This document shows positions 5,032-48,600 of a DNA stretch of 64,000 nucleotides, piece after piece. How positions within the stretch are numbered: the stretch's first letter is position 1; each line of letters begins with the position of its first letter. Source of the stretch: an uncultured Planctomycetia bacterium (GTDB lineage: Bacteria; Omnitrophota; Gorgyraeia; Gorgyraeales; Gorgyraeaceae). The translations under genes and the position numbers were made by a program. The DNA is taken from NCBI GenBank assembly GCA_964566255.1, contig CAZMID010000003.1:5145-69144 (forward strand), in the 5' to 3' direction. The notes under the pieces were generated by a model. It was not told the DNA's origin, did not search any database, and worked only from the letters and a program-made list of their open reading frames with translations.

Positions 5032-5492
5032 TTAGATTCCCCCTTTTCTACATCTTGCTCCTTCTCTTTTTTAACAAGAAGACCTTTTTCATCTGCAATC
5101 TTTACTATCTCTTTAGCAACATATTTTAATATATTCGTGCCGCTTTTTATCACTTTAATAGAAAGCTCTTTATTTTCAGGCGAAAACAATAAAAGTCCCA
5201 TCCTTATCTTTTTAAACGAGAGAACTATCATCTTATGCTTTATTGCCAAGACTTCTGGATATTTCGTGGATTCAAGCTGTGCCACATAAGTATCCATGCG
5301 CTTTACAGCTTCCTGCATAGGCAAATAATTCATCCCTACATTTCTTACTGTGATATCGACGTTTGTAATTATAGAAGAAATTTCTTTAAGATACACTACT
5401 ACTTCATCTTCATTTTTATTTTCCTCTGCCCTTACAAAAACACTAAATATAAGAATTACTGCTGCGATAAAACCAATATTAATTTTCTTCAT
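5028..5492 (-). CDS. hypothetical secreted protein
   Basis: 154 aa with a signal peptide. There is a 4-bp overlap with the upstream gene. Confidence 0.4.
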   Translation of the reverse strand: MKKINIGFIAAVILIFSVFVRAEENKNEDEVVVYLKEISSIITNVDITVRNVGMNYLPMQEAVKRMDTYVAQLESTKYPEVLAIKHKMIVLSFKKIRMGLLLFSPENKELSIKVIKSGTNILKYVAKEIVKIADEKGLLVKKEKEQDVEKGESK

Positions 5493-10364: not shown

Positions 10365-10803
10365 TGATAAAAAGCGCTACCAAAATACCTATGGCTGCGC
10401 CTATAAATACCTGTATAGGCGTATGTCCTAATAACTCCATAAGTCTTTCTTGTTTAACGCCTCTTTGCAGATAAATATCCTCTATTATTTTATTCAGCAC
10501 TCCTGCCTGTCTTCCACTTTGCCTTCTTACTCCCTGCGCATCAAACATTATAATAAAAGCAAAGAAAAAAGTAACTGCGAAAAAAGCTGATGAAAAACCG
10601 AAAATAAGACCGATAGATGTAGCTAAACTAGAGACAGTCGCAGCATGAGAACTAGGCATACCACCTGCCCCTACAAACCATTTAAAGTTAAATCGCCTCT
10701 TACGTATTACGCCGATTACTACTTTTATTGTCTGCGCCAATAACCATGAAAAAAGTGCAGCCAAAAATACATCATTTTTCCCAAGGGTTACAAAAAAATT
10801 CAT
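10357..10803 (-). CDS. divergent PAP2 / DUF212 acid-phosphatase-related membrane protein
   Basis: 148 aa. The GGMPSSHAAT signature is typical of the DUF212 (divergent PAP2) family. It has hydrophobic helices and an AGGAGG ribosome-binding site. Confidence 0.65.
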   Translation of the reverse strand: MNFFVTLGKNDVFLAALFSWLLAQTIKVVIGVIRKRRFNFKWFVGAGGMPSSHAATVSSLATSIGLIFGFSSAFFAVTFFFAFIIMFDAQGVRRQSGRQAGVLNKIIEDIYLQRGVKQERLMELLGHTPIQVFIGAAIGILVALFING

Positions 10804-21584: not shown

Positions 21585-22448
21585 TTACTGCCTTACAACT
21601 ATGTCGTCTATCTCTATATGAAATCCTCTTTTAGTATCCTTTATATCTGCAGCAGCGATCTTATTTCGTATTTGTATTACTTCTACATAACCAACGATAT
21701 TATTTCTCTTGTGAACACTAAAGCTATTCCCTACTTCAATACCGTCTTTTCTTCCTAAGTTTATAACTACAAAATTATGTTTTCTATTTACAGTAACAAC
21801 CTTGCCCCTCAAACCTGAAGACTTATTTATGTATTCAAATGGAGAGGTTGGTGTAAGCTTTGCTAGTCTGCGAGGCCCACTCTCTAAAACAATAGGTGGA
21901 AGTTCTACTTCATCTGGTGCATGATAAGCCTCGGCCCTAACTTCTTTCTGCTTTGTCTCTTTCGTGAAAGCAGCCTTTAATTTATCAAAACTATCCTCAA
22001 GTCCAGATAACTTAGTTTTTAAAAGGCGATTTTCCTTTTTAATATTTTTATATTTTGCTATAAAACCTTTTGAGGTAAGGTGCTTTAATTTATTTTCAAA
22101 AAAGATTTTACCTTTTCTTATCTTGACAAGTTCTCTATTTAGGCCATCCATCTCTCCTAAGACTGTTTCATATTGAAATTTTAGGTCTTTATTCCTTGCC
22201 TCTAAGATAGTCAGCTCTTCTTCAACTGTTTGTACCTTTGTCTTCAAACTTTGATTCTCTCTGACTAAAGCCGTGGCCTTTTTATCAAGTCTATTCATAT
22301 TGGCTACATTTACCTTAAACATAGTATCTAATGTAGTGTAATCAATATAAAGCCTCTCTTTCTCCATAAAAAACCAGAGAGTACTAAAACTACTTAATAA
22401 TACTAATATTACTAATATCAACAATATAAGACGTATGGTCTTATCCAT
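21585..22448 (-). CDS. hypothetical membrane-anchored coiled-coil protein
   Basis: 287 aa. An N-terminal transmembrane helix is followed by a long coiled coil and a C-terminal beta-rich domain. There is an 8-bp overlap with the upstream RND gene. Confidence 0.4.
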   Translation of the reverse strand: MDKTIRLILLILVILVLLSSFSTLWFFMEKERLYIDYTTLDTMFKVNVANMNRLDKKATALVRENQSLKTKVQTVEEELTILEARNKDLKFQYETVLGEMDGLNRELVKIRKGKIFFENKLKHLTSKGFIAKYKNIKKENRLLKTKLSGLEDSFDKLKAAFTKETKQKEVRAEAYHAPDEVELPPIVLESGPRRLAKLTPTSPFEYINKSSGLRGKVVTVNRKHNFVVINLGRKDGIEVGNSFSVHKRNNIVGYVEVIQIRNKIAAADIKDTKRGFHIEIDDIVVRQ

Positions 22449-25400
22449 AATTTTTCCTTGTTAATTTTATTATACCATAGATTTTATTTTTAACAACAAC
22501 TAATAACTGTTTTTGTTTTAAAATTATATTTTTTACATCTTTTAAATCTTCAAATATCAAATAAATACTGGGCACAAGAAAAAGAGTAAATATAGTTGAA
22601 GAGGCCATCCCTCCTATCACAGTAATCGCCAAAGGAGACCATAAATTTGCTGATTCACTTCTATCAAATGCCATTGGCATAAGACCAAGTATCGTCGTAG
22701 AAGTCGTCATAACTATAGGCCTCAAGCGGTCTTGACTAGAGGTTATTATTGATTTTATCATATTGCTGGGACTTTGTTCTCCCACCTTTGTCTTTCTTCG
22801 TAAAAAATTTATCCTATCCACTAAAACGATTGCATTATTAACAACAATACCTGCAAGCATAATAGCACCTATTATTACTCCTCGACTTATTGGCTTACCG
22901 GTAATCTTCAGTGCAAAAATTACTCCTATAACTGCTAGGGGAACTGATATCATTATAATAAATGGTTGTGTATAGGATTCAAAGAGGGAAGCCAATACCA
23001 GATATACTAAAAATATTGTTATCCATAGTACCCCTGTAGGAAATGCCCATAATTCCTTCTCATTCTCAAGATTCCTTTCATAATTCCCTCCTATCCTATA
23101 ATAATAATCCCTTGGAAACTCCATATCTGACAGACTCATCCTAATCTTTTTAACAGCCTTTACAAGAGAATCTTGTGTAACAAGGCTAGATATATGCACA
23201 ACCCTCATCTTGTTCTTGCGGACTATCTCACTGGAGCCTATCTGAGGTGTAAAATTAGCAACTTGTTCTAATAATATTGGATTTCCATCTTTTGAAAAAA
23301 GCGTCAATTTCCTAAGGTCATCCAAACGATCTCTATCTTCTTTCCTCAGGCGCGACACCGTCTCTATCTCCCTGGACTCTGTATGATATAATGTAGCCCT
23401 CAATCCCCTTATTTCAGAATGAAGCGTCTCTGCTATATCTTTTGCTGTCAGACCAAACATAGCTGCTCTTTCTTTATCAACGGTTATGCCCCATTCAGGC
23501 CTTCCGCTGATCCTCGACATCCTTATATCTTCAAAACCTTCCATGATCCCGAGTCTTGTAGCGATTGATACAGCTAATTCCTTTAATATCTCATAATCAT
23601 AACCATAAAGATCTAATACGATTTCCTTTAAACCTTTTTCTTCTATCTCTGAAAAATAAATAAAACCTCCCTTATACTTCTGTTCCACTACCTGAGCCCT
23701 AGCCCGTATATCATCTATAACAGATTTGGTCGTACGCCTTCTATGGGAAAGCGGCATAAGTTTTACATATAGCTTACTGGACCATGGCTCCACACGAGAA
23801 GTAAATGTCTTTATCTCTGAAATATCAGAAAGGAGTATTTCTATTTCTTTTACCATATCATCAGTTACATCAAGTTTTGCACCAGGTTCCAACTCTATAA
23901 ATATGGTAAATCTTCCTTCTTCTGTCCCTGCCATAAATTCACTATCTATCTTGGATCCTAAAAATAACATAAATACCAAAATCACAATTGCTACACCTAA
24001 AAATACATACCTCCACTTCAATGCCATGTTTAAAAAGTATCTATAATACTTCTTTATATTTAAAAAGAGATCTTTCTTAAACATAGACTTTTTGGGTTTT
24101 ATCCTGCTGGTCGGGCTTTTTATGCGATCTGAAATCATAGGCACCAGCATCAAGGCAACAAATAATGAACTGACTAAAGCATATGTTACCGTCAGCCCCA
24201 ATCCGCTCCATAGCATGCGCGTAGCCTTATTCACAAATACAAATGGCAAAAATACTATTATTGTAGTTATGGTAGAAGCAAATATCGCAAGTCCCACTTC
24301 ACTGGAACCACTTACGACCGCCTGCGTAAATTTTGGCCTCCAGCTCGACTCAGAAAAATCGATGCCTTTTTTCTTCTTATCAATATTATCAAGGACTACT
24401 ATAGAATTATCCACTAACATACCTATACCAAGTGCTAATCCACTGAGCGTCATAACATTTATGGATATCTTATAAAAATACATCAGTATAAATGTGGCCA
24501 TGACTGATATGGGAATCGTAACAGCTATTATAGAAGTCACCCTCGGATCCCTTAAAAATAATAAAAGCACCATCACTGCTAAAATGGCCCCATAAAAAAG
24601 TGATTTCTTTACAGCATTTATGGCATCTTTTATTGCATTTGCCTGATTCAATGTAGCCTTTATAAATATATTCTTATCCAATGTCTTCTTTAGGCGAGCA
24701 ATCTCTTCTTCTATGTTAGAGACAACCTGGATAGTATTTGCAGTTGATTCTTTTTGTATGTAAATAGATACTACTGGCTCTATATCCGTCCTTGCATAAT
24801 TAGTAGGCTCTAAAAAAGAATCCCTGACTTTCGCAATCTCTTTAAGTTTAATGATAGAACCATGAGGCGTAGTAGTAACGCCAATATTTTTTATGTCATC
24901 AAGAGATTTAAACTCCCCCATTATCCTTATAAGAAACTTATTTTTTCTGCGTTCAATATCGCCTGCCAATAGATTTAGATTATTCGCGCCAAGTGAATTG
25001 ACCACATGTTCCATGGGGATATGATATTGATATAATTTATTTTTATCTATTTCGACTAAAATCTTACGTTCTCTACCACCATATACATCTACATTAGCCA
25101 CGCCTTCCACTCGTAATATGCTCTCTTTTATCCCCTCATCCACGACCTTCCTTAGTTGTTCAGGTGTGTAGCCCTTGCCTGTAATCGCCAATAAAAGTAT
25201 TGGCAGATCTGTTTCTTTATATTGTGCTATTATTGGTTTTTGGATTTCCTTGGGAAGCTTGTCTCTTATCTTTGAAAATTTCTCTCTTACTTCTAATGCA
25301 GCAAATTCCATGTTAGTGCCTGGTTCAAACTCAAGCCATATCCTGGATTCCCCGGCCTTTGAAGTAGAATATATATTTTCTAAATAACTTACGGTAGAAA

Positions 25401-25614
25401 CTGCCTCCTCTATAGGCCTTGTGACAAGGGTCTCTACTTCCTGTGGTGGCATACCACCTCTTACGGCTACGATTATACTTATATCTCCATACGCTACGTT
25501 AGGTTTTAATTCAACAGGTAATCTCGTTAAAGACACGCTTCCCACAAGCAATATCCCAAGAAACAACATAAATATCGTAACAGGCCTTTTAACTGAAAAT
25601 TCAGATAGGTTCAT
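22441..25614 (-). CDS. RND efflux transporter permease (AcrB/Mdt family)
   Basis: 1057 aa. It has a 12-transmembrane RND architecture with two large periplasmic loops. The N-terminus …RPVTIFMLFLGILLVG… is typical. Confidence 0.9.
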   Translation of the reverse strand: MNLSEFSVKRPVTIFMLFLGILLVGSVSLTRLPVELKPNVAYGDISIIVAVRGGMPPQEVETLVTRPIEEAVSTVSYLENIYSTSKAGESRIWLEFEPGTNMEFAALEVREKFSKIRDKLPKEIQKPIIAQYKETDLPILLLAITGKGYTPEQLRKVVDEGIKESILRVEGVANVDVYGGRERKILVEIDKNKLYQYHIPMEHVVNSLGANNLNLLAGDIERRKNKFLIRIMGEFKSLDDIKNIGVTTTPHGSIIKLKEIAKVRDSFLEPTNYARTDIEPVVSIYIQKESTANTIQVVSNIEEEIARLKKTLDKNIFIKATLNQANAIKDAINAVKKSLFYGAILAVMVLLLFLRDPRVTSIIAVTIPISVMATFILMYFYKISINVMTLSGLALGIGMLVDNSIVVLDNIDKKKKGIDFSESSWRPKFTQAVVSGSSEVGLAIFASTITTIIVFLPFVFVNKATRMLWSGLGLTVTYALVSSLFVALMLVPMISDRIKSPTSRIKPKKSMFKKDLFLNIKKYYRYFLNMALKWRYVFLGVAIVILVFMLFLGSKIDSEFMAGTEEGRFTIFIELEPGAKLDVTDDMVKEIEILLSDISEIKTFTSRVEPWSSKLYVKLMPLSHRRRTTKSVIDDIRARAQVVEQKYKGGFIYFSEIEEKGLKEIVLDLYGYDYEILKELAVSIATRLGIMEGFEDIRMSRISGRPEWGITVDKERAAMFGLTAKDIAETLHSEIRGLRATLYHTESREIETVSRLRKEDRDRLDDLRKLTLFSKDGNPILLEQVANFTPQIGSSEIVRKNKMRVVHISSLVTQDSLVKAVKKIRMSLSDMEFPRDYYYRIGGNYERNLENEKELWAFPTGVLWITIFLVYLVLASLFESYTQPFIIMISVPLAVIGVIFALKITGKPISRGVIIGAIMLAGIVVNNAIVLVDRINFLRRKTKVGEQSPSNMIKSIITSSQDRLRPIVMTTSTTILGLMPMAFDRSESANLWSPLAITVIGGMASSTIFTLFLVPSIYLIFEDLKDVKNIILKQKQLLVVVKNKIYGIIKLTRKNYG

Positions 25615-28600
25615 GTGCTAGAGCCTTCTTTTAATTCATACCACCTGCCAGGACCAAGTGGACCCTTGGCTACAACTAGTCCTCTATCTAATAATTCCTT
25701 TAAGTCCCTTGCTGCCGTTGGAACAGATATATTAAATTTATCCGCATATTCTTTGCGTGTAATCTTTTCTACTTCTTTTAAATACTGCAGGAGTTCTTCA
25801 TGGCGCCTGTTAAATTTTTGTGGTGGTTTTTCTTCTGGTTCAGGCGCAGGTTTTTCTTCTTTTTTAACAGACTCATCAGGAAGCTCTATTTTAGGAGGCG
25901 GAGTTGGTTTTTCTTCTTTTGGTAAAGGAGGTGCTACCTTAGGAGGTGGTAATTTTACTTCGGGCGGAGGCAGTGTAATAATTTTTGGTTTTTCTATAGG
26001 AGCTACTCTAACAGGCTTTTCTTCTTGTATAGGGACCGTTTTCAAAACTGGTTTTACCTTAATAAATCCAGCAACAATAGTATAAATACATGGTATTACA
26101 AAAAGTGTCAATATCGTAGAAACCAACAATCCGCCCATTACTGTTATTGCCATTGGACTTTGAAGCTCTGAACCTTCAGCTATACCTAATGATAAAGGTA
26201 ACAGCCCTAAAACCGTGGTCATGGTAGTCATAAATATAGGCCTAAGCCTGGTCTTACCAGACTCGATAACCGCCTCTATTAATTCAGTCCCCTTCGCCCT
26301 TAATCTGTTTATAGAATCAATAAGAATAATACCATTATTGACAACAATACCTCCTAATATTATAAGTCCGAGCATAACGACTACGCTGATAGGCGTATGA
26401 GTTAAAAATAATGCAAAAAATACCCCTATAAGGGATAGCGGTACTGTAAACATAATAATAAAAGGCTGCCATAAAGATTCGAATTGCGCAGCCATTATCA
26501 TATACACTAGAAGTATTGAAAGTATTAATGCAAACCTTAAAGACTTAAAAGATTCTTGCATCTCTTGACTTTCGCCTGATAAAGATACAGAAAGATCTTT
26601 TTCTATATCTTTAGAGTTGGTAAATTCTCTAATCTTTTCATTTTCTACCCTATCTATAAGCCTATTAATATCTATTATTACCTTATCTAATGCCCTGTCG
26701 GCTATATTTGCTGTTACGAGAACGACCCTCTGCTGATCAAGTCTTTTTATCTCAGTCGGACCAAGGCCTTGCGTTATATAAGCTACTTCTGAAAGTGGTA
26801 CCTCTATATCAAGCGGTGAATGAATTAGTATATTTCTGATCTGGGAAAGTTTTTTTCTGCCCTCTTTTCTTAATCTAACTCTTACATCTATCTCTCTACC
26901 TTCCTCTTTAAATTTAGTAGCCACTACACCTTTTATAGCAGTATGAGCAGCCTGAGCAATTACAGCTGTTGAAAGGTTATAAAGTGCTGATTTATCTTTT
27001 AAGACGTTAACCTTTGTCTCAGGCGAAGGCCTCGCAAGACTTGTACGTACGCCATAGATACCTTTTATATCTGAAAGGTCTTCTTTAATATATTCTGAGA
27101 CCTCCTCAATCTTTTTAAGGTCTTTTCCTTTAATCTCAATAACAATAGGGGCTGAACCTTGAAGTGCGGTTTTAAAAACACTCTCCTGTAAAATATATTC
27201 TATCTCTGCGCCTTCTAAATTCAATCTATCTAACTTAGTCTTTAAGGTCTCTATTACTTTAGAGGTAGCGCCATATCCTCTTCCCTTTTTAAGGCTTACT
27301 ATTATCTGAGACTGATGTGAACCCATTGTCTCAAGCCCTTGCGCATAATCCTTCTTTTTGCTCGAACCTATATTCAGCGCTACGCCCTCAACGTCTTTTG
27401 CATCAAAAAGTATTTTTTCTATTCTTTTTACAATGCCATCTGTTATATCCAATTTTGTACCACTGGGCATATTTACTTTCATAATAAATTCGCGCTGGTC
27501 TACCTTTGGCATAAATTCTCTGTCTATAAACATAAAAAGGCTCATAATTAAAATAAATACTGCGACTACGCCTAATAAAAATATCCATCTATACTTCAAT
27601 ACTTTTTTTATCATCGCTGAATAAATAATTCCTATGCCAGATGTAAAATCCTGCCTATTATTAGAAATAGCATTTATTCCCTTGAGCTTTTTTGATATAC
27701 GAGTAAAAAATTTCTCAGAGATCTTTTGTATACCCTTATGGGAGTGTGTATCTACTGCCGTTAAACGCGGGATTAAGGAAAGGGCTACTATCAGAGAAGC
27801 CATAAGAGAAAATGTCACAGTAAAAGCAAGCTCTCTAAAAAGCTGGCCTGCCACACCTACGACAAATACCATGGGTAAAAATACTGCCACCGTAGTAAGC
27901 GTTGAAGAAAATATAGCGCCTGACATCTCGCTCGCCCCAACCTTTGAAGCCTCTTTAATGTCTTTTTGTTTCTGAAAAAGGCTGTATATATTCTCAATGA
28001 CAACTATTGCGCTATCCACCAGCATACCTATGCCTAAAGCAAGTCCTCCCAAAGAAAGCATATTTAATGTAATACCATTAAAGTACATAAGGCTGAATGC
28101 AACCATTATAGATATAGGCATAGAAAACGCTACGATCAATGAGGCCTTTATGTTCCTTAAAAATAAGAAAAGTACTAAAAATGCAAGTATCCCTCCCTGG
28201 ATAGCTGCCTGCATAACCCCGCGTATTGATTTTTTAATAAAAATAGACTGGTCATATACTATCTTAATATCAATACCTTCAAGCAGATCCTTTTCTATAA
28301 TATCAAGTCTTGAACGCACCTTTTGTGAAACCAGTATAGTATTGACTCCGGCTTGCTTTTGGACTGATATTGAGATATTTTCTTCTCCGTTATATCGGGA
28401 TATACTACTACGCTCTTGAAAGGTATCTTTTATCTCTGCCATATCCTTTAGATATATAAGCCGGTGTGCCTTCTCTGGCCGACTAAATTCCCTTTTGTCT
28501 GGATCAAGTTTTTCTTCAGGTTCGTCTTTGGCCACAACTGTAACACCTATCTCCGAAACTATTTCAAATTCTCCCATGGTCCTAATCAGATATTCATAGA

Positions 28601-29264
28601 AATGCTCTTCTATTGTGCCGGCTGGATAATTTAGATTTGATGACTTTAATGCATCTACTACCTTTGTTATAGAGACATTGGATGCCCGCAGTCTTCCTTC
28701 GTCTACTGCAACAAGAATCTCTCTTTCAAGTCCGCCGCTTATATTACACGATGCAACGCCTTCCACCTTCTCAAGTTCATCCTTTATGAATTTTCTGGAA
28801 AGCCTCAAAAGTTCTGATGGGGATTTATTACCTGTAATACTCAGTGTAATGACAGGTAATTCAAACGGATTGAATTTCATAACTATCGGATCAGCAGAAC
28901 CAAGGGGGAGTCTTTCTTTTATGAGATCTATTTTTTCACGCACCCCGAGTGAGGCAAAATCCATATCAGTACCCCAATTAAATTCAGCAGTAACAATAGA
29001 AACCCCCTCTTTCGAAATAGAGCTTATACGCTTTAATCTACTTACAGTGCCAACTGCTTCTTCTATTATCTTTGTAATGAGGGTCTCTACTTCTTCAGGG
29101 GCAGCATTTTCATATGTAGTAACTATTGTAAGTTGCGGGTATGTAATAGACGGGAAGAGTTCTCTAGGCAAGCGGCTCAGGGATATAAGCCCGAGCATCA
29201 ATACGCCCAGAAAAAACATAGAAGTTGTAACAGGCCGATTTACTGAAAACTCTGGAAGTCTCAT
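25611..29264 (-). CDS. RND efflux transporter permease with a C-terminal Pro-rich linker and winged-HTH extension
   Basis: 1217 aa. The RND core spans about aa 1-1065. An ~85-aa proline/lysine-rich linker follows (…LPPPEVKLPPPKVAPPLPKEEKPTPPPK…). The last ~66 aa form an HTH (…ITRKEYADKFNISVPTAARDLKELLDRGLVVAKGPLGPGRWYELK). Confidence 0.85.
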   Translation of the reverse strand: MRLPEFSVNRPVTTSMFFLGVLMLGLISLSRLPRELFPSITYPQLTIVTTYENAAPEEVETLITKIIEEAVGTVSRLKRISSISKEGVSIVTAEFNWGTDMDFASLGVREKIDLIKERLPLGSADPIVMKFNPFELPVITLSITGNKSPSELLRLSRKFIKDELEKVEGVASCNISGGLEREILVAVDEGRLRASNVSITKVVDALKSSNLNYPAGTIEEHFYEYLIRTMGEFEIVSEIGVTVVAKDEPEEKLDPDKREFSRPEKAHRLIYLKDMAEIKDTFQERSSISRYNGEENISISVQKQAGVNTILVSQKVRSRLDIIEKDLLEGIDIKIVYDQSIFIKKSIRGVMQAAIQGGILAFLVLFLFLRNIKASLIVAFSMPISIMVAFSLMYFNGITLNMLSLGGLALGIGMLVDSAIVVIENIYSLFQKQKDIKEASKVGASEMSGAIFSSTLTTVAVFLPMVFVVGVAGQLFRELAFTVTFSLMASLIVALSLIPRLTAVDTHSHKGIQKISEKFFTRISKKLKGINAISNNRQDFTSGIGIIYSAMIKKVLKYRWIFLLGVVAVFILIMSLFMFIDREFMPKVDQREFIMKVNMPSGTKLDITDGIVKRIEKILFDAKDVEGVALNIGSSKKKDYAQGLETMGSHQSQIIVSLKKGRGYGATSKVIETLKTKLDRLNLEGAEIEYILQESVFKTALQGSAPIVIEIKGKDLKKIEEVSEYIKEDLSDIKGIYGVRTSLARPSPETKVNVLKDKSALYNLSTAVIAQAAHTAIKGVVATKFKEEGREIDVRVRLRKEGRKKLSQIRNILIHSPLDIEVPLSEVAYITQGLGPTEIKRLDQQRVVLVTANIADRALDKVIIDINRLIDRVENEKIREFTNSKDIEKDLSVSLSGESQEMQESFKSLRFALILSILLVYMIMAAQFESLWQPFIIMFTVPLSLIGVFFALFLTHTPISVVVMLGLIILGGIVVNNGIILIDSINRLRAKGTELIEAVIESGKTRLRPIFMTTMTTVLGLLPLSLGIAEGSELQSPMAITVMGGLLVSTILTLFVIPCIYTIVAGFIKVKPVLKTVPIQEEKPVRVAPIEKPKIITLPPPEVKLPPPKVAPPLPKEEKPTPPPKIELPDESVKKEEKPAPEPEEKPPQKFNRRHEELLQYLKEVEKITRKEYADKFNISVPTAARDLKELLDRGLVVAKGPLGPGRWYELKEGSST

Positions 29265-30481
29265 TCTTCAAATACACTCTCCTGTACCTCTATAACCTCC
29301 ACAGGCATTCCGTCTCTGAGTTCCTGTGGAGTATCTGTCACTACCAATTCTCCTTCATAAAGGCCAGATTCTATGACAGTGTAATCAGTTGTCACATAGG
29401 CTACCTCGACAGGCTTGGCATGGATGGTGTTATTATTATCAACAGTAAAAATTTTATATCCGTCATCATCTTTATCTAAACTTAAGCTCGGTACAACCAC
29501 TGCATTCTCAAATTCAGCAACGGTTATCATGGCCCTTGCAAACATGCCTGGCAAAAGTAATGCATCTGGATTTTCTATGCCAACTCTAACAGTAAGAGTT
29601 CTGGATTTTCCTTCAATAACAGGAAAGACATTGTCTACAACTCCTTCAAAATCAAGATCTGAATAAGCATCTACAGTAACCTTTGTATCTTGTCCAAGCG
29701 CAATCTTATCTATATCCTTTTCAACTATACCGAGCTCTACAAAAACCTTCATGGTATCGTATAATGTCGCAATCTTATCGTGTGGAGTAACAAATTCTCC
29801 CTCTTCTACGTCTCTAGAACCTAAAACTCCGTCTCGTGGGGCATAAAGATCTGTCTTCTCAAGCTCTGATTCTGCTGACTTAAGCTCTACTTCAGCTGAG
29901 ACAACCTGGAGCTCAGCTGACTTAGCCTCTAATTCTACCTCCTCCAGCTTCGTCTTTATAATGCCGCCTATCTTATAAAGATTTTGATGGATTTCTAATT
30001 TCTTTTTTGTTGCAAGGGCCTGCATTTTAGTAGATTCTAATTTACTCTTAGAATACTCCACCTTTAATTCAGCATCCTTTCTGTTTAAAACAGCTATTAA
30101 ATCTCTTTTATAAATAACATCCCCTTCTCTATAATTAATAGTCTCTACCACGCCATTCACTTCAAATTTAAGCTCTATTTCCAAGGCACCTTTGACTGTA
30201 CCCATTACAGGTAGATCATCCTTAAAATCTGTCAATGTTATTCTATAGCACCTGACCGGTATAGCGCTTGAAGCTTGTGATTGAGGCATAGCCTCCATAC
30301 CTTTAGCGGTATCTTTTTCTTTAATTTGTTTTTGGGCTTTTTTAGATTTGGTAAATATATTCGGTATGGATATTTTTTTTAAAGGGGTTTTATTTAATAA
30401 TGTCATACCCCAGAGAACTGCAAATCCTACCACCCATAAAGCTATAAACGCTATTAATATTATCTTTGTCTTTTTTATCAT
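29261..30481 (-). CDS. RND efflux periplasmic adaptor (membrane fusion protein, HlyD family)
   Basis: 406 aa. It has an N-terminal transmembrane anchor, a coiled-coil hairpin, and lipoyl and beta-barrel domains. It overlaps the RND gene by 4 bp. Confidence 0.85.
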   Translation of the reverse strand: MIKKTKIILIAFIALWVVGFAVLWGMTLLNKTPLKKISIPNIFTKSKKAQKQIKEKDTAKGMEAMPQSQASSAIPVRCYRITLTDFKDDLPVMGTVKGALEIELKFEVNGVVETINYREGDVIYKRDLIAVLNRKDAELKVEYSKSKLESTKMQALATKKKLEIHQNLYKIGGIIKTKLEEVELEAKSAELQVVSAEVELKSAESELEKTDLYAPRDGVLGSRDVEEGEFVTPHDKIATLYDTMKVFVELGIVEKDIDKIALGQDTKVTVDAYSDLDFEGVVDNVFPVIEGKSRTLTVRVGIENPDALLLPGMFARAMITVAEFENAVVVPSLSLDKDDDGYKIFTVDNNNTIHAKPVEVAYVTTDYTVIESGLYEGELVVTDTPQELRDGMPVEVIEVQESVFEE

Positions 30482-32307
30482 TTTATTTTGCCTACATTAG
30501 CCAGCATAAAATTTTCACTATCCAAAAACAGTGCATATCCTGTTGCCTTGTTTAATTTTGCCATGGACTGGTAGAGGCTACCCATTAATTCAATATAGTA
30601 TGATTTTTCATCTGTCAAATTCATGTGCGCCTGCATAAGCTCTGAAAATGGAATCTCATTCAATTCTGAACGGGCCTTTGCAATCTTAAGCTCTTCTTCC
30701 CTGTATTTAATCTTATTCAAATTAGCATTTGCCTGAATAAATCCTTTCCTGTAATCCAGGTGGGCCTCTTTCACCTCTCTTAAAACATTATCTTCTGCCT
30801 CGCGTAATTCCTCCCTGGCCTTATCCAATGCTATCTGGCTGGATTTCTTCTCGGAAAAACTCTGCAGATTATCAAGAAAGTTAAATTCCACTGACTGGCT
30901 AGTAGATTCTGTCCTGGACGTTTGACCATGTTTTTCACTTGTCTCATCTTCTGTATAAACAGTAGAAAGTGTATTACCGCCTAAAGGCTTTGAAAACTTA
31001 ATTCCAAAATACCAGTCATTTTCCATAGTCAAATCTTCAGATTCATACGCCCCACCGGATTTGCCATAATTTCCTGTAAGATCCACCTTTAGCTGATCTT
31101 TAGAAAGTGCTATCTTACGGTTATACTCATTAAATTCCACCATATGTTTTTTTGCCTTAAGATCTGGTCTGTATCTAGAAGCTAAATCCATGCATTCTTC
31201 TAGTCCCACATCTATATATACCGGCTTTAAATCCGTCATATCTACATCTACTAAAGTATCTATTTCTTTTGAGTCTTCTACACCCATTGCCTGCTGTAAA
31301 ACCAACCTTGCCAAAGATAGATCATTTTCACTTGAGGCAACCTGATAATTAATCTGTTTCATCTGGGACTTTACCTGCAAAAATTCAGCCTTTGTACTTA
31401 ATTCAAGTTCAAACCTCTTCTTTGCAGTATCAAAAACAGTTCCTGTCTCTTTTAAAAGAGACCTTTGCAGCCCCACATTAATTGAACTGGCCATATATGA
31501 ATAAAAAGACATCTCCACCTCGAGCCTCAAATCCTGCAAAACCTTATCATAGTTCTCTGTCGAGGCCTTCATGTTGCTAACTGCCTGTTCAACCGCATAT
31601 TTAAGTCGCCATCCATAATAGAGCGGATATTCAAATTTGAGTTTATATTCCTTGTCTGTAAAATCCTGTATATTCGCAGTAGTTTTTCCTGTTGTCTCCA
31701 GATAACTAAAACTTGCTGCTGGGAAAAGGGCCCTCCTTGCCTCTCTTATTTTAAGCCTTGAGAGCGCTATCTCTTCCTTGGCTATCCTTGTAACTGTGCT
31801 ATTTTCCAATGCAAGGTCTACTGCATCGTTCAAACCTAGATCTCTAACATCCAGACTTTTCGGACTGGGTAACTTTGCGTGAAAAGTATCTTTAGTATCA
31901 AATATTATCGGGATATCTATCCAACGATCCTTTTCTCCAAGTGCTTCTGGAAAAGGTTGATACCTTTGATACATCCAGACTGCCTTTAAAGAGGCCTCGT
32001 CCAGTTCTGTAGAGTCCGAAGACTCAGAAACATAGGCATCCTTCAGCTCTCCCCAAGGAGAAAGTAAAATCTTTAACCTTAACTTCCCCTTTGAGTCATA
32101 TACTACAGACCTATCAGGCATAGGAGAAATAGAATCATATATCTCATTTGATAAATCTACGATATATTGTATTAGAGATTCGTTTTGGATGGCTGGTTGA
32201 TAAGAAAATACTTCTGTGGGCGATATAAATACAATTATTACAGCAAAAGATAATAATATAGCGCTTTTAATGTGCATAACCTCTCCTGTGAAGGAGAAGT
32301 ATATCAC
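30478..32307 (-). CDS. outer-membrane efflux protein (TolC family) with an N-terminal TonB-C-like extension
   Basis: 609 aa. The TolC-like repeats cover about aa 170-609. The first ~150 aa after the signal resemble a TonB C-terminal fold (…GKLRLKILLSPWGELKDAYVSESSDSTELDEASLKAVWMYQRYQPFP). Confidence 0.75.
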   Translation of the reverse strand: MIYFSFTGEVMHIKSAILLSFAVIIVFISPTEVFSYQPAIQNESLIQYIVDLSNEIYDSISPMPDRSVVYDSKGKLRLKILLSPWGELKDAYVSESSDSTELDEASLKAVWMYQRYQPFPEALGEKDRWIDIPIIFDTKDTFHAKLPSPKSLDVRDLGLNDAVDLALENSTVTRIAKEEIALSRLKIREARRALFPAASFSYLETTGKTTANIQDFTDKEYKLKFEYPLYYGWRLKYAVEQAVSNMKASTENYDKVLQDLRLEVEMSFYSYMASSINVGLQRSLLKETGTVFDTAKKRFELELSTKAEFLQVKSQMKQINYQVASSENDLSLARLVLQQAMGVEDSKEIDTLVDVDMTDLKPVYIDVGLEECMDLASRYRPDLKAKKHMVEFNEYNRKIALSKDQLKVDLTGNYGKSGGAYESEDLTMENDWYFGIKFSKPLGGNTLSTVYTEDETSEKHGQTSRTESTSQSVEFNFLDNLQSFSEKKSSQIALDKAREELREAEDNVLREVKEAHLDYRKGFIQANANLNKIKYREEELKIAKARSELNEIPFSELMQAHMNLTDEKSYYIELMGSLYQSMAKLNKATGYALFLDSENFMLANVGKIK

Positions 32308-32365
32308 ACGATTACCCTTTTGTCAATATAGGGTTATAAAAATACTGATACAGTTTTGATACGGT

Positions 32366-33604
32366 TTAAAGATTTATAAAAATATCCCTTATAACAACAC
32401 TAGCTGCGCCTAATGCAACAGCATCACGGCCAAGATGTGCAGGTATTATCTTTACAACATTAGCAGGCTCCTCAAAGGCCCACTTTCTTACTGTCCTTCT
32501 TAATGGCTCTAAGAATAAACTGCCGGATTTTTCAATGCCGCCACCTATTATAACTATCTCAGGGTTAAATAAATTAACCAGATAAGCAACCCTTACACCT
32601 AAGTTGACAGCTGCATCTTCCAAAAGCTCTATTGAAAGGGTATCGCCTGATTTTGCCGCATCTATTATACTCTCTACTGTAAGGTCGTCTAATTTCTTTC
32701 CTGCAATATCTGATATACTGGACTTTATACCTTCTTCTTTTATTAGTTTCCTTGCCTGGGCTAACAATCCTAAGTCCAAACCTAAAGGCAGTAAAAACGA
32801 AAGGTTCTTTGAAAGCTTCAGATACTCTCCGTTCCTGGGATAGTTTATACGAATCTCTCCTGCTGAACCACTGGTGCCGCAATACATCCCGCCTTTTATA
32901 ATAATCCCGCTTCCTACATCAGAATACATATAAATAACATCCTGCGAATCCATAGGAAGTGCATGCATCTTCTCGCCAAAGGCCGCAAATGTAGCGTCAT
33001 TTCCAAGAAAAGAATGTATCCCAAATCTTTCTTCAATAAGTCCCTTCAAGGAAACATAGCTTGTACGCATACCAGTTCTTGTAGAATCCCTTACCGTACC
33101 AAGGTTTTCATCTATAACCCCGCCAAGGCCTATACCAACACCTTTAAGTTTATCCTTACTAACACCTTTTTTCTTTATCAATTCATCTATCAATTCAAGC
33201 GATTTATCTATAATCTTATCCATGCTTCCTTTTTCTCTTTTCTTTTCAATCCTTGCTATTGTCTTACCTGAAAGATCTGTAACCAATCCTATCATAGTAG
33301 CGCCTTCTGCGCCCATATGGCCAAGGTCAAGTCCTATAGCATAACCATTCTGCTCGTTGAGCTTAATAAGGGTTGGCTTCCTTCCGCCAGAGGAGGATTC
33401 CATTCCACCTTCAATAATAAGTCCTGCATCAATATAGGTATTTATATAATTTGACACTGTTACTATATTAAGGTCTGTTATCTTTGAAATATCTGCCCTT
33501 GTAATAGGGCCATTTCTGCGGATGAGCTCTAATATGGAAAAATTTTTCTTCTCATGATCTGAAAGTAAATGCCCCTGAAAAACCTGGTTTCTCCTGATAG
33601 GCAT
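32366..33604 (-). CDS. ROK-family transcriptional regulator (N-terminal HTH plus sugar-kinase-like domain)
   Basis: 412 aa. The HTH is …ILELIRRNGPITRADISKITDLNIVTVSNYI…. The ROK glycine-rich motifs include …GLGGVIDENLG…. Confidence 0.8.
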   Translation of the reverse strand: MPIRRNQVFQGHLLSDHEKKNFSILELIRRNGPITRADISKITDLNIVTVSNYINTYIDAGLIIEGGMESSSGGRKPTLIKLNEQNGYAIGLDLGHMGAEGATMIGLVTDLSGKTIARIEKKREKGSMDKIIDKSLELIDELIKKKGVSKDKLKGVGIGLGGVIDENLGTVRDSTRTGMRTSYVSLKGLIEERFGIHSFLGNDATFAAFGEKMHALPMDSQDVIYMYSDVGSGIIIKGGMYCGTSGSAGEIRINYPRNGEYLKLSKNLSFLLPLGLDLGLLAQARKLIKEEGIKSSISDIAGKKLDDLTVESIIDAAKSGDTLSIELLEDAAVNLGVRVAYLVNLFNPEIVIIGGGIEKSGSLFLEPLRRTVRKWAFEEPANVVKIIPAHLGRDAVALGAASVVIRDIFINL

Positions 33605-45677: not shown

Positions 45678-48600
45678 TTATAAACTAGCTCCTATTGTCC
45701 TAGGTTGTCTCTTAAATGTCATATTACCTGTGTCACTATAAATAGGCACATTCATCCTTTCTTCATGCAAGTCTTCAGCATCATATTCAGTTTCTGTCAA
45801 AAGATCTATTGGCAATTTAATTGTAATCTTTACATCACTATCACTACTATTAAAATTTGGCTTTCCAATGAAATCTTTCTTAAGTGCTGTAGCTCTTGAA
45901 GATAGTATTGATATAAAAGAAGATATTGCATTATTGGGTCTATTTAATCCTATTATAGAAGTAGTGATTGTAATAATGTCTTCCTTGCGTTCCGTACTTA
46001 TAGATAAAATTCCTTTTTCATTGACAATATTAGCAATGCCTTTTAAAAACATACAAATATCTTCAGATATATCAATATTATCTACATCTATTAAACCCAC
46101 TTTTTCATCTAGTGTTGTTTTTACTGTAAGCTGCGGATATAAGCTTTTTAAACCCTGCAATTCCAGTAGAAGGTCTCGATTTATACCGCTTTCTTTTTTC
46201 ATGAGTTCTCCTATATCTAGACCTTTCGCCATAGGTCTAATAGTCTTAGAAGGACCATATAATCTCTCTAAAACACCCTGAATATGTGCGGCAAAACTAT
46301 TTCCATTATTAAAGCTAGGATCTGTGTCATCTAAAACTTCTGAGAACGCTTCTGCCAACATCTGATCACGTAAATCATCTTCAAATCCATCATTATCTAC
46401 ATAGTCATCTTGACCATTATTTGAATCTTCAATCTTATACAGACTATCATCTACCATTCTATCAAAAAGAAAACTATCATTCCCATACTCAATATCTTTA
46501 AGTCCTATTGTCAGCAACAAATCTAGCTTAAATCCTCCTGCATTAATTATGGATGTTACGACTAAACGTTCTGCCTCAAAAAGAATCTGTGCTGGCGTAC
46601 CTTGGATATGGCTTTCGGTATATTTTGATAGTCTTAATCCAAGACTGTTAGATAGACGCTTTCTTTTGTTAGATGGTATATGATATTTGTACTTTTCTAT
46701 TAACTTTTCTATGACTGTCTTGTAATCCCTTGAGACGGCCAAGAATGTAAGAGATACATTGCCTGATTCAAGACATCTCTCTTGTATTAAACGAGCTATC
46801 TTTTTATGTAATTCATCATTACTGTTTAGCAATTTTCTTAAACCGACTATTTTATGTGGTCTGAATTTCGAATTATCCTCGGTCAAAAGTACTATCTTGG
46901 CATTGGGATTTCCATCTTGCCAATCTTTAAGACGCATTACAACCCAGGGAATGCCATTTTTTGTCCACAATACAACTCTTTCCCTTTTGAATATTTTGAC
47001 ATAATAGTGCTTTTTCTTAAAAGACTTGACATAACGTATGTAACCACTCTTTTTTAGAGGTTCACTGTATTCTATACGTATATTTCCTTTCGTAATCTTC
47101 TTGATTTCAGAAAATTCCGGCATAACCTCATTATAGGTAAACACTATTTTGCCTTCATCGTTGTAAATCCGATTGTATTCATACATCTTACAATAGCCTC
47201 TTCTTTTAATATAATCATCAAGCTTGGCGTATTTAAGAAGATAAAATTTTTCTTCAATATTTCCATCTTTTTCTTCGTTTACCTTTACAAACCATGCCAC
47301 TGTCTCTGTTCCTGGTGAAAAATCCTCATCTACTATATAATCGTCGTTAAAAAAGAATATCGCTCTCCTGTTATCTCCAACTTTCAACCCTCTAACTCTG
47401 ATTATACTCCTATTAGTAAGCTTTTTAAATTTTGAACTAATTTTTCCGCGAGCCTGGGTAGAAAAACTACCTATAAATTCATCTTTATCCTCAAGTTCTA
47501 CATCTACAGTTACAAACTCATCCTTTTTGGCTTCTGGATTTAATATTGAAGAAATACCAAAGGCCCCTGTCACATAGTTATCTTTGCCCTTGCGCCACAA
47601 TATTAAATTATCCTTTTTAAAGGAAGACACATATGCTTTTATATAGAAAAAATTGCCACCTTCATCTGTGGTGCCTCCTATTACTATATAAGTATCAGTT
47701 AATTCTATTTTTCTGTTCTTATGTGGAAATGTCTCATGTAGATCTCCTGCTTCATTAAAAATTTCTTCATATACTTTCTTTCCTCTTCCATCTATATCTG
47801 AAACAAATCTTATTACATCTCGCACATTCTTAGTCTTTCCTTCTCCAATTTTAATCCTTTGTATTAAAATACGCGTTTTTTCGCCAGGAGTACGAACTAT
47901 CCAACTAGTATCTCCATTTAACGAAAATTTCATCTTACGGCCTCCTGGTATTTTTCGACCCTCAACAAGTACCAAACCATGCTCCTCTAATAAGCTATCT
48001 AAAAATTCGTAAAAATCATTATTATTTATAGAACCTTCCCATTTATCCAAAAACTTCCCTGTCCTATAATCTACAAAGGCAATATTGTCTTCCTCAACGA
48101 TCTTTTTTCTTTTCTCGATATCTTTTTGGTCGGGTTCATCTAAAAAGCTTCCTTGTGGAATATCTGAAATCTCTATATCTAGTTCTGAAGATAACGTTAA
48201 AAGCGCTTGTCTTGCCTCTTCTGCTACCTCCAAGTTAACTCCTTCCATAAGCTTCTTTAAATGAGGAATAAATCTTCTGTCTTTTAGCTCAGTTACTTTT
48301 TGAATCAATTTTTCCATGGCTTTAGTAATTAGCGGATTTAAGCTGTTTATTAGGAACTTAAATTCATTGATTCTAGCTATGTACTTCTCTATTTCATCAG
48401 TTCCAGAAACATCTGGTTTTCTAATTACTGTTTTGCCTACAAATGCTGTCTGCGGTAATGCTGAACTATTAAACTCTTCTGAAATATTACTAGCTCCAAA
48501 TATAAAATAGCTTCTACTTTCTACCTCATTACGGATGTGTTTTGGTATTGAGTCCAATATTTCTTTTTCTCTTTTTTCCTTCCTTGCCTTATTTAGTGCT

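Follow-up and report, generated by a model that had tools for sequence, protein, structure and literature searches.

To our knowledge, the regulation of RND efflux pumps lies with separate soluble repressors or with two-component systems. Some of these pumps, such as MdtBC and MuxBC, are heteromeric and are formed from tandem paralogues, and MdtBC has been reported as a B2C trimer. Membrane-integrated transcription factors with a winged helix-turn-helix (wHTH) domain are an established class, the ToxR/CadC family, whose members are bitopic and consist of an N-terminal cytoplasmic OmpR-type wHTH, one transmembrane (TM) helix and a periplasmic sensor; one of them, CadC, is coupled to the transporter LysP (PMC5936718). 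Here, we analyzed a 64-kb stretch of DNA (hereafter, the window) that encodes an RND permease, RND1, ending in a wHTH domain of its own. A preliminary description of the window knew of no earlier account of such a fusion, and we likewise found none in the literature searched. The phylum concerned, Omnitrophota, has hardly any cultured members that we know of.

An efflux operon and the extended permease RND1

The features of the locus are listed in Table 1. The operon comprises genes for an outer-membrane factor, an adaptor, RND1, a second permease (RND2) and a coiled-coil membrane protein, and its composition suggests an envelope-spanning efflux machine of Candidatus Omnitrophota. Two adjacent paralogous RND genes in one operon, the gene arrangement expected of a heteromeric pump, are present, and the TGA stop codon of RND1 overlaps the ATG of RND2 as ATGA. 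The outer-membrane factor probably starts at the ATG at 32277, which is preceded by GGAGAGG, rather than at the mechanically listed GTG at 32307; its combination of OEP and TonB_C domains was also found in loci L001, L005, L086, L087 and L209. For the coiled-coil protein, whose C-terminal domain is conserved, the Pfam matches (FlgT_C and MreC) were both below threshold.

Table 1. Features of the efflux locus, with nucleotide positions in the window
Feature	Position	Strand	Description
Single-pass coiled-coil membrane protein	21585..22448	–	directly after RND2; slot conserved
RND2, tail-less paralogue	22441..25614	–	1057 aa, 36% identical to RND1; start overlaps RND1 stop by 4 nt
RND1-wHTH gene	25611..29264	–	1217-aa permease with C-terminal linker and winged helix; ORF, ACR_tran, HTH_DeoR
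wHTH domain	25626..25817	–	aa 1150–1213; HTH_DeoR match aa 1154–1197, AF2, Foldseek
wHTH elements			H1 1153–1165; b1 1167–1169; H2 1170–1176; recognition helix H3 1181–1193; wing strands 1197–1200, 1208–1211
Pro/Glu/Lys-rich low-complexity spacer	25818..26072	–	aa 1065–1149, ~85 aa; flexible tether by prediction
RND transporter core	26073..29264	–	aa 1–1064, 12-TM AcrB-type fold; PF00873
Periplasmic adaptor (membrane-fusion protein)	29261..30481	–	HlyD_D23 and HlyD_3; conserved synteny; same operon
Outer-membrane factor with N-terminal TonB_C	30478..32277	–	OEP and TonB_C
Sigma-70-type promoter of the efflux operon	32298..32326	–	TTGACA, 17 nt, TG-TATACT; 11/12 consensus matches
Candidate operator	32346..32365	–	two direct repeats, ACCGTATCA / ACTGTATCA; 11-bp period, centred at ~–70 and –59
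ROK-family regulator	32366..33604	–	wHTH and ROK domain; HTH_24, ROK; directly upstream of operon

A Pfam search aligned residues 5–1064 of RND1 with positions 3–1020/1021 of ACR_tran (PF00873; E 2.6e-238). The profile, with its 12 TM helices and two periplasmic loops, was matched end to end, which places the protein among the RND (AcrB/AcrD/AcrF) permeases. However, RND1 scored below the whole-protein cut-offs of all curated NCBIfam RND subfamilies compared (RND_permease_1/2, MdtB, MdtC, AcrB and CusA), with 620.6 bits against a cut-off of 1250 for the best of them, RND_permease_2, 373 against 1584 for MdtB and 351 against 1774 for MdtC. Judged by these profiles, RND1 is a divergent RND lineage. 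In the databases, such proteins are labelled plainly as 'efflux RND transporter permease' or, wrongly, as 'DeoR family transcriptional regulator'.

The protein had been described as continuing for about 150 aa past TM helix 12; we obtained ~153 aa beyond the ACR_tran match, and the tail mapped to nt 25611..26072, essentially the region 25614–26063 originally assigned to it. The peptides quoted for the tail were recovered in the translated ORF, and the plus-strand ORF at 25615–26085, previously dismissed as spurious, proved to be the linker and wHTH region read on the opposite strand. In the canonical RND topology, 12 TM helices leave the C-terminal tail on the cytoplasmic side; the cytoplasmic location proposed for the tail follows from this topology and is backed by the end-to-end ACR_tran match. 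The ORF translation contained neither stop nor Met codons between the core and the HTH, the frame is continuous, and the identical 1217-aa protein was present under three source tags (NCBI, JGI and ENA), three contigs with this protein having been read.

Whether orthologues keep the fusion had been raised as a check. Among 120 homologous proteins (1140–1276 aa, 51–100% identity to RND1), ~115 carried the tail, down to 51% identity. Of the five without it, most were visibly cut short, and one (P0068) ended in unrelated sequence. Every named homologue that keeps the tail belongs to Candidatus Omnitrophota, and the wHTH was as conserved as the transporter core (~62% each in 30 scorable homologues). 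The fusion was present in 80 loci from a collection with one genome per species. The tail was invariably borne by the RND1-type permease (85 loci), and a tail-less RND2-type gene followed the tailed one in all 82 loci with enough sequence. This constant pairing of a tailed RND with a tail-less paralogue is a new observation.

The long Pro/Lys/Glu-rich spacer noted earlier ahead of the HTH is present in the sequence and varies freely among homologues in both length and sequence. In 106 homologues it measured 41–176 aa (median 72) and consisted of 20% P, 14% E and 13% K; the longest spacer, in P0135, reached ~390 aa. Some spacers are coiled-coil. Scarcely anything in them is conserved save one short motif, [IVL][IV]x[LMIV]P, which occurred in 42/106 spacers compared with a mean of 11 (maximum 20) over 200 shuffles and was restricted to the two closest clades.

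The winged-helix domain and its membrane carriers

The preliminary description had proposed that the tail ends in a DeoR/wHTH-like domain, to be checked by profile search. In such a search, the last 79 aa exceeded the cut-offs of HTH_DeoR (31.0 bits, cut-off 21), HTH_24 (26.2, cut-off 21.9) and HTH_11 (25.2, cut-off 25). An AF2 model of the tail had a mean pLDDT of 82.8, with block means of 92, 94, 94 and 91 over tail residues 21–60 and of 79 and 86 in the blocks on either side, where H1 and the wing are located. Its order of secondary-structure elements, H-S-H-H-S-W-S, is that of the canonical winged helix (H1-S1-H2-H3-S2-wing-S3). When this model was used as a Foldseek query, winged-helix proteins were returned with probability 1.0 and TM scores of 0.6–0.7. 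DNA-bound or DNA-binding proteins among them were AspA in complex with DNA (the top match), MarR, ArsR/CadC and the C-terminal wHTH of DIP2311 (31% identity, rmsd 1.0). The matches also included winged helices that serve as protein–protein modules, for example in ESCRT-II. By its modelled fold, then, the RND1 tail is a genuine winged-helix domain, as had been proposed.

The invariant residues of the domain (R1154, R1170, S1180, T1183, A1184, R1186, D1187, G1201, P1202, G1206, R1207 and Y1209) concentrate in two places, the beginning of the recognition helix and the tip of the wing, and its net charge by residue count is only ~+2. The signature 'TA.RDL' is common to the whole DeoR-like or 'LNERQ' wHTH class and may therefore be structural rather than DNA-specific. 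We infer that the tail binds DNA. An HMM search of the six-frame translation of the window yielded no further copy of the domain, the only other match being a weak one to the HTH of the ROK regulator, and a tblastn search of the tail against plasmids gave no match.

The same wHTH was also found on another membrane protein. In one lineage, both RNDs lack the tail and a single-pass coiled-coil membrane protein bears the wHTH. In L086, the sole locus of this lineage that shows both RND genes, the RND1-type and RND2-type permeases are tail-less, and the TM–coiled-coil–wHTH gene lies directly after RND2 and ahead of the outer-membrane-factor gene; in L087 and L209 it also directly precedes the latter. 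This alternative carrier beside the same pump is new here. The coiled-coil protein of the window fills the operon slot after RND2 that the wHTH-carrying protein fills in L086, and the two share architecture and operon position, although their sequence similarity was not significant. Among related domains, the tight sequence group to which the RND tails belong was carried only by RNDs or by coiled-coil proteins with an N-terminal TM helix. Since the same wHTH occurs on an alternative membrane anchor beside the pump, the property that is conserved is a winged helix held at the membrane next to this pump.

Promoter repeats and the possible roles of the tail

The sigma-70-type promoter of the operon, for which a transcription start near 32291 is predicted, recurs in most of the listed type-A loci, and a conserved direct-repeat motif, AACCGTATCA, with an 11-bp period was found at the operon promoter. 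The exact 9-mer ACCGTATCA occurs once in the window, at the candidate operator, which is likewise new here. Paired repeat sites were present in 29 of 41 type-A loci, nearly always just upstream of the outer-membrane-factor gene, and in most type-A loci the repeats lie at constant, activator-like distances from the –35 box. Deeper lineages showed sites in other orientations and spacings, and in some lineages 5–8 exact sites lie within ~130–250 bp that cover the promoter as well as the 5΄ end of the gene.

In type-B operons, in which the gene order is RND1-RND2-adaptor, paired sites were not found in 19 of 20 cases within the stretch examined, and several of these operons have a terminator-like leader upstream of RND1 instead. 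For this leader, RNAalifold gave only a terminator-like hairpin with little covariation. Rfam searches of the window and eight related loci matched only tRNAs and, in the related loci, c-di-GMP-I riboswitches, and no family covered the type-B leader.

The tandem motif was also observed in low-GC, Omnitrophota-like contigs, upstream of a gene for an unrelated 82-aa membrane protein and directly after RND2. Because the motif thus occurs away from the pump promoter, its binder would have a regulon that extends beyond the pump and may not be dedicated to it. A metagenome scan for ACCGTATCANNACCGTATCA was dropped as a definition of this regulon: 73 of 80 fetched contigs had a GC content of at least 0.42, none had the pump operon downstream of the motif, and the largest recurrent flanking families included tyrosine integrases and primase-like genes, together with tRNA-like stretches. 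Such flanks resemble unrelated integrative elements, and only a few of the contigs look Omnitrophota-like.

The AACCGTATCA repeats are thus a candidate operator, for which the RND tail is one putative binder. Among possible functions of the tail, that of a pump-tethered transcription factor appears most likely. Specifically, we hypothesize that RND1 is a membrane-tethered one-component transcription factor acting on its own operon through the AACCGTATCA repeats, a proposal that we favour tentatively and to which we give somewhat less than an even chance. In this proposal, a spacer of 40 to ~390 aa links the cytoplasmic winged helix to the C-terminal end of the first RND paralogue of the pair. 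Each pump trimer would have one to three tails, according to the stoichiometry of its subunits, and these would extend from the membrane as far as the chromosome and dock onto the helically phased direct repeats beside the operon's own promoter. Transcription of the pump genes could then be under feedback from the amount of pump in the membrane and possibly from its state. Monomeric wHTH proteins that oligomerise on DNA can bind direct repeats one helical turn apart (10.1101/784983; PMC11963761), and the variable orientation and spacing of the sites fit monomeric domains on separate tethers better than they fit a rigid dimer. Counting against the proposal are the occurrence of the motif elsewhere, the type-B operons in which paired sites were not found, a 'TA.RDL' signature that may be structural, and the ROK regulator encoded beside the operon.

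A more far-reaching version, which we regard as possible but rather unlikely, is that the double-RND pump itself is the transcription factor: its tethered winged helices would bind the phased repeats of its own promoter in dependence on pump assembly or the transport cycle. The pump would then be a single-polypeptide flux sensor without a separate TetR/MarR-type regulator and would also physically fix the operon to the part of the membrane into which its products insert. The two possibilities put forward at the outset, a one-component link between pump and transcription and a nucleoid tether, are the leading candidate explanations.

Alternatively, the repeats may belong to the adjacent ROK regulator or to another factor. 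The tail would then have a different DNA target or would be a protein- or ligand-binding winged helix, for example one that keeps a soluble regulator sequestered at the membrane; in E. coli, the ROK protein Mlc is sequestered in this way by the transporter PtsG. ROK could bind the repeats, since it has a near-invariant HTH and stays linked to the operon in 32 loci, even where rearrangements have taken place; a comparison of conservation did not favour either candidate, both HTHs and the motif being near-invariant. The repeats away from the pump operon would suit such a binder, and the ESCRT-II-like Foldseek matches offer a precedent for a protein module. However, the sites are direct repeats with variable orientation and spacing, whereas the characterised ROK repressors known to us are fixed dimers or tetramers that bind to palindromes. 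Moreover, where ROK lies ~12 kb downstream, no sites were found near it, and the motif arrays of L086 and L087 occur with no ROK among the called genes. We therefore consider this alternative unlikely.

A further explanation, also of low probability, is that the tail is a non-regulatory DNA tether. The wHTH would anchor its own locus or the nucleoid to the inner membrane without promoter control, which could favour co-transcriptional insertion of very large envelope proteins or nucleoid organisation in very small cells. The long, highly variable spacers (41 to ~390 aa, sometimes coiled-coil) and the exchange of the RND for a coiled-coil membrane anchor are consistent with this explanation. The dense site clusters would suit multivalent capture, and the top Foldseek match, AspA, is a centromere-binding, DNA-spreading wHTH protein. 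However, the fixed activator-like positions of the repeats in most type-A loci would be difficult to account for if the repeats had no part in transcription, and the small net charge of the wHTH also argues against it.

It is improbable that the tail is a releasable transcription factor, in which a protease would cut the spacer upon pump stress or misassembly and free a soluble winged helix. Regulated proteolysis has reportedly been seen in one study of the membrane-bound regulator CadC, the spacer is long and exposed, and its enriched motif could be a recognition or cleavage site. However, this motif is confined to two clades, synteny across related loci revealed no protease gene conserved in the operon, and the coiled-coil anchor of the alternative architecture points to permanent tethering. 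Finally, the possibility that the fusion is an artefact, in which an RND gene and a separate small HTH gene were merged by a frameshift from sequencing or assembly or by an overlooked stop codon, is negligible and was ruled out by the conservation of the fusion in ~115 homologous cluster representatives and 80 loci, by the identical protein from three sources and three contigs, and by the continuous frame without Met in the tail.

If RND1 does act as a tethered transcription factor, a wHTH inside a permease would be a new and minimal wiring from transporter to gene expression, conserved across many Candidatus Omnitrophota, and the small class of membrane-integrated one-component regulators would extend to a polytopic transporter. 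The occurrence of the wHTH either on an RND C-terminus or on a coiled-coil anchor offers a natural experiment on tethering, membrane distance or valency, and the 70-aa tail and the AACCGTATCA repeats form a concrete, testable candidate protein–DNA pair.

Comparison with known systems

With E. coli MdtBC and P. aeruginosa MuxBC, the locus shares tandem RND paralogues in one operon with one adaptor. However, neither MdtB nor MdtC is known to have a cytoplasmic domain, and the Omnitrophota proteins fall below the NCBIfam MdtB and MdtC cut-offs.

With regard to the domain itself, HTH_DeoR is the best Pfam model of the tail. In DeoR-family repressors, however, the HTH is N-terminal and precedes a DeoR C-terminal domain that senses sugar phosphates, whereas in RND1 the HTH lies at the extreme C-terminus and no match to a DeoR C-terminal domain was found. 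A further likeness is that to the promiscuous C-terminal winged helices of AlbA_2/HATPase_c_4 (DIP2311-like) and SoFic-like proteins, which share with the tail both the fold (PDB 3lmm, 31% identity, rmsd 1.0) and the signature 'LNERQ...TA.RDL...G.G..Y.L'. The group that ranked next to the RND tails in the profile search was made up largely of copies of this 'LNERQ' domain type that are short or C-terminal; one scanned example carries AlbA_2 and HATPase_c_4 domains, and P0189 is a weak SoFic-like_C match. These carriers are soluble, whereas the RND tails fall into a subgroup of their own (PTAARDLKEL ... GPxGPGRWYEL), which is tighter and was observed on membrane-anchored carriers only.

Like ToxR and CadC, RND1 would keep a cytoplasmic wHTH permanently at the inner membrane, where it is proposed to act on promoters. 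It differs from the bitopic proteins with an N-terminal OmpR-type wHTH that make up the ToxR-like group, in that a C-terminal DeoR-like wHTH extends on a Pro-rich spacer from a 12-TM transporter, which would itself be the 'sensor'. RND1 is accordingly no member of that group, but it may work like a ToxR-type factor.

RND1-wHTH is a conserved RND–winged-helix fusion

A near end-to-end match of aa 5-1064 to Pfam ACR_tran (profile positions 3-1020 of 1021, E 2.6e-238) indicated that the permease RND1-wHTH (RND1) contains a complete 12-TM RND core, after which the protein continues for ~153 residues comprising a low-complexity spacer and a winged-helix domain (wHTH). HTH_DeoR scored 25.8 bits on the last ~70 residues of the full protein and 31.0 bits on the isolated tail (cut-off 21), and the isolated tail also exceeded the HTH_24 and HTH_11 cut-offs in the profile search. 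Inspection of the reading frame between the RND core and the tail revealed neither a stop codon nor a Met codon, and the TGA stop of RND1 and the ATG start of the downstream gene share an ATGA overlap. Established RND topology places the tail in the cytoplasm.

We retrieved 120 cluster representatives (identity 51-100%) in a full-length search; apart from visibly truncated ones, they were ~1105-1276 aa long, most carried a precomputed HTH_DeoR match, and those with names were all Candidatus Omnitrophota. The signature TA[AS]RD was present in 115/120; most of the other five are clearly truncated, and the end of P0068 is unrelated sequence. The preliminary description, which had proposed an RND permease continued by a Pro/Lys/Glu-rich spacer and a DeoR/wHTH-like domain, was correct in all details, including the spurious nature of the plus-strand ORF at 25615..26085, which is the linker and wHTH region read antisense. 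A one-genome-per-species scan found 101 relatives, and the 80 loci kept were nearly all labelled Omnitrophota, with 18 labelled 'uncultured Planctomycetia' or 'Planctomycetales' and three with another or no phylum label. Divergent long-linker versions belonged to Omnitrophota in every named case.

Identity was ~62% for both the wHTH and the transporter core (30 scorable homologues). Spacer length ranged from 41 to 176 aa (median 72; P 20%, E 14%, K 13%; 106 homologues); one protein had a spacer of ~390 aa, and in some others it is a coiled coil. A conserved wHTH on a variable spacer is the pattern expected for a functional domain on a flexible tether. The spacers were also enriched for the short linear motif [IVL][IV]x[LMIV]P (e.g. 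KIITLPPP, IIVMPSKAL), found in 42/106 spacers (200 shuffles averaged 11, with a maximum of 20) and restricted to closer clades.

AlphaFold2, given an alignment of 51 tails (A1), returned a model with a mean pLDDT of 82.8 (block means 91-94 over the central 40 residues) and the element order H1-b1-H2-H3-b2-wing-b3. Only winged-helix proteins of the PDB matched it with probability 1.0 in Foldseek; matches included AspA-DNA complexes, ST1889, SrnR, ArsR/CadC and MarR proteins and an operator-bound ROK repressor, and the C-terminal wHTH of DIP2311 (3lmm) aligned at 31% identity with rmsd 1.0. Invariant positions in the alignment fell in H1 and the b1/H2 junction (R1154, R1170), at the start of the recognition helix (S1180, T1183, A1184, R1186, D1187) and in the wing (G1201, P1202, G1206, R1207, Y1209). 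This pattern would fit a DNA-contacting surface; we only infer such contact, because the 'TA.RDL' signature is common to the whole DeoR-like class.

The efflux operon and its promoter repeats

The efflux operon of the window, entirely on the minus strand, encodes, from first to last gene, a ROK-family regulator, a TonB_C-fused outer-membrane factor (OMF), an adaptor, RND1-wHTH, the tail-less paralogue RND2, a coiled-coil membrane protein and YchF. In all 85 related loci, which were annotated through BLAST comparison with the window proteins, the tail was carried by the RND1-type permease. An RND2-type gene directly followed the tailed RND1 in 82/82 loci with room for one, and this invariant pairing suggests, by analogy with the mixed RND trimer MdtBC, that RND1 and RND2 may form a mixed trimer; if so, each pump would bear a defined number of tails. 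Two layouts were observed: type A ([ROK]-OMF-adaptor-RND1wHTH-RND2-coiled-coil, 41 loci) and type B (RND1wHTH-RND2-adaptor, 20 loci).

Features of the efflux operon and of related type-B loci
Feature	Position	Strand	Evidence or description
RND1-wHTH	25611..29264	minus	ORF, 1217 aa
Spacer, low-complexity, Pro/Glu/Lys-rich	25818..26072 (aa 1065 to ~1149)	minus	sequence
RND2	22441..25614	minus	36% identical to RND1, without tail
Coiled-coil membrane protein	21585..22448	minus	single-pass, 287 aa
OMF, TolC-like (OEP)	30478..32307 as listed	minus	N-terminal TonB_C
ROK-family regulator	32366..33604	minus	profile matches, HTH_24 + ROK
Promoter upstream of OMF gene	TTGACA at 32326, 17 nt, TG-TATACT ending 32298	minus	near-consensus, 11/12 matches
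Direct repeat 1, ACCGTATCA	32365-32357	minus	candidate operator
Direct repeat 2, ACTGTATCA	32354-32346	minus	candidate operator
Type-B leader, L023	6550-6632
Type-B leader, L024	916-996
Type-B leader, L041	6392-6470
Type-B leader, L055	430-512
Type-B leader, L060	1602-1676
Type-B leader, L062	4836-4918
Type-B leader, L063	6020-6096
Type-B leader, L059	690-760

The two promoter repeats have a period of 11 bp, with centres near -70 and -59, and they include the only exact 9-mer in the 64-kb window. Most type-A loci listed share the arrangement, with the repeats at window-like spacing or abutting the -35 box; paired sites were found in 29/41 type-A loci, almost exclusively at this promoter. Deeper lineages place the same 10-12-mer between the -35 and -10 boxes, with an inverted copy downstream, or carry tandem copies on the opposite strand, up to 8 exact sites in ~250 bp. 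A spacing of one helical turn between direct repeats, together with variable orientation, is typical of wHTH proteins that bind as monomers and align along DNA (10.1101/784983; PMC11963761), and by this analogy the candidate operator would suit domains that are tethered independently.

Within the stretch examined, 19/20 type-B operons lacked paired sites. Several of these operons have a conserved terminator-like leader upstream of RND1, consisting of GGGACTGGCA, an A-rich stretch, AGGGGGTAAGCC-hairpin-CCCC and a U-run. It matched no Rfam family and showed little covariation among 8 sequences; it may be an attenuator or riboswitch. C-di-GMP-I riboswitches lie a few kb from RND-wHTH operons in L023 (2499-2616, 2690-2802) and L041 (455-569, 3478-3575), and a similar sequence was recognized by eye after a repeat array in L087 (~6300-6450).

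Straight after the -10 box, CTTCTCC-TTCACA-GGAGAGG (32280..32299, minus) could form a 7-bp hairpin in which the transcript 5' end pairs with the Shine-Dalgarno sequence. Most type-A loci share the pattern 'ACTTCTC...GGAGAA', and the element could affect translation or stability or be a palindromic operator. The mechanically listed GTG start of the OMF at 32307 falls within the -10 region, and the true start is likely ATG 32277, after GGAGAGG. The TonB_C-OMF fusion also occurs in L001, L005, L086, L087 and L209, with an AMIN domain in its place in L004. The 287-aa coiled-coil membrane protein starts with a TM helix and ends in a conserved beta-rich domain with sub-threshold FlgT_C and MreC matches only; before this domain lies a conserved 'EVxLPPI' that resembles 'IITLPPP' in the RND1 spacer. 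All 35 window ORFs of at least 150 aa are on the minus strand except two antisense shadows, and one giant ORF (45678..63860, minus) spans 6060 aa.

The domain and the tandem motif in other contexts

An exhaustive wHTH profile search of 1.84 billion representatives gave 3483 matches at E ≤ 1e-3. Down to ~E 1e-17 these formed a tight group with the signature 'PTAARDLKEL...GPxGPGRWYEL', composed of RND fusions or their C-terminal fragments, a handful of multi-domain proteins whose individual matches were weak, and one exception set; weaker matches were C-terminal wHTH domains of the generic 'LNERQ' type, and one that was scanned carried AlbA_2 and HATPase_c_4. The exception set (P0160, P0189, P0191; 313-329 aa) couples the same wHTH to a long coiled coil and a TM helix at the N-terminus; P0160 gains the helix only when its start is placed further upstream, as we read the L209 sequence. 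Genes in L086 run in the order tail-less RND1-type, tail-less RND2-type, TM-coiled-coil-wHTH, TonB-OMF and adaptor, and the TM-coiled-coil-wHTH gene directly precedes the OMF gene in L087 and L209. Thus, the domain has switched between the C-terminus of the RND protein and a distinct membrane anchor encoded next to these pump genes, a strong argument that selection maintains a winged helix at the membrane alongside this pump.

Downstream of these operons we also noted related repeat arrays: five ..TATCA units with a 10-12-bp period (L087, 6070-6120) and arrayed ACCGTCTCA variants (L086, 10085-10450). Inspection by eye showed two copies in L086 (~5440-5480 and ~10540-10580) of a ~70-90-bp stretch with the palindrome TTGCCCAATTTATTGGGCA at its end, which may be a small repeated element.

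In a metagenome scan, the exact tandem motif occurred mostly in contigs of higher GC, which we read as unrelated integrative elements; recurrent flanking families include tyrosine integrases and primase-like genes, and tRNA-like stretches were also present. The identical repeat in many of these contigs (L089-L167, e.g. L127 3302-3321, L095, L140) is often followed by a conserved '...GAGCGAAAGCAGAC.CCCCA..TTGTTGAAA' block, and forms iteron-like arrays in L111, L125 and L144; we regard them as probable recombination-directionality-factor or iteron sites belonging to unrelated elements. Low-GC, Omnitrophota-like contigs carry the motif before the gene for an 82-aa two-TM protein (MDKKYKLLEVSS...; L100 4911-5228, also L099, L114, L121, L134) or directly after RND2, and it thus marks a small regulon beyond the pump promoter. 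REP-like palindromes lie upstream of the repeat in L100-type contigs.

Proposed tethered regulation and its alternatives

The analysis demonstrates the fusion, its fold and its conservation, the pairing of the two RND paralogues, the second type of membrane anchor and the conservation of the repeats at the promoter. We tentatively favor the possibility that the tail is a one-component transcription factor, whose pump-tethered winged helix would act on the efflux operon's own promoter. Alternatively, the tail could serve another partner while ROK binds the repeats. In 32 loci a ROK gene is genetically linked to this operon, either immediately upstream of it or a few kb downstream; its near-invariant HTH is as invariant as that of the tail, so co-variation does not assign the repeat binder; we consider this division of labor unlikely. 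A non-regulatory role, in which the tail tethers the locus or nucleoid, appears rather improbable. Release of the factor by proteolysis of the spacer is very doubtful. An artefact is practically negligible, and the identical 1217-aa protein is listed under NCBI, JGI and ENA, with three contigs carrying a copy read.

Database entries call some of these proteins 'DeoR family transcriptional regulator' and the others 'efflux RND transporter permease subunit', and no description of an RND-HTH fusion was found in the literature searched. RND pumps, wHTH domains and membrane-tethered regulators are known building blocks; what is new is that RND and wHTH are combined and that so many Omnitrophota genomes conserve the fusion. 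The proposed tethered regulator would be similar in logic to ToxR/CadC (PMC5936718), although RND1-wHTH lies outside that family.
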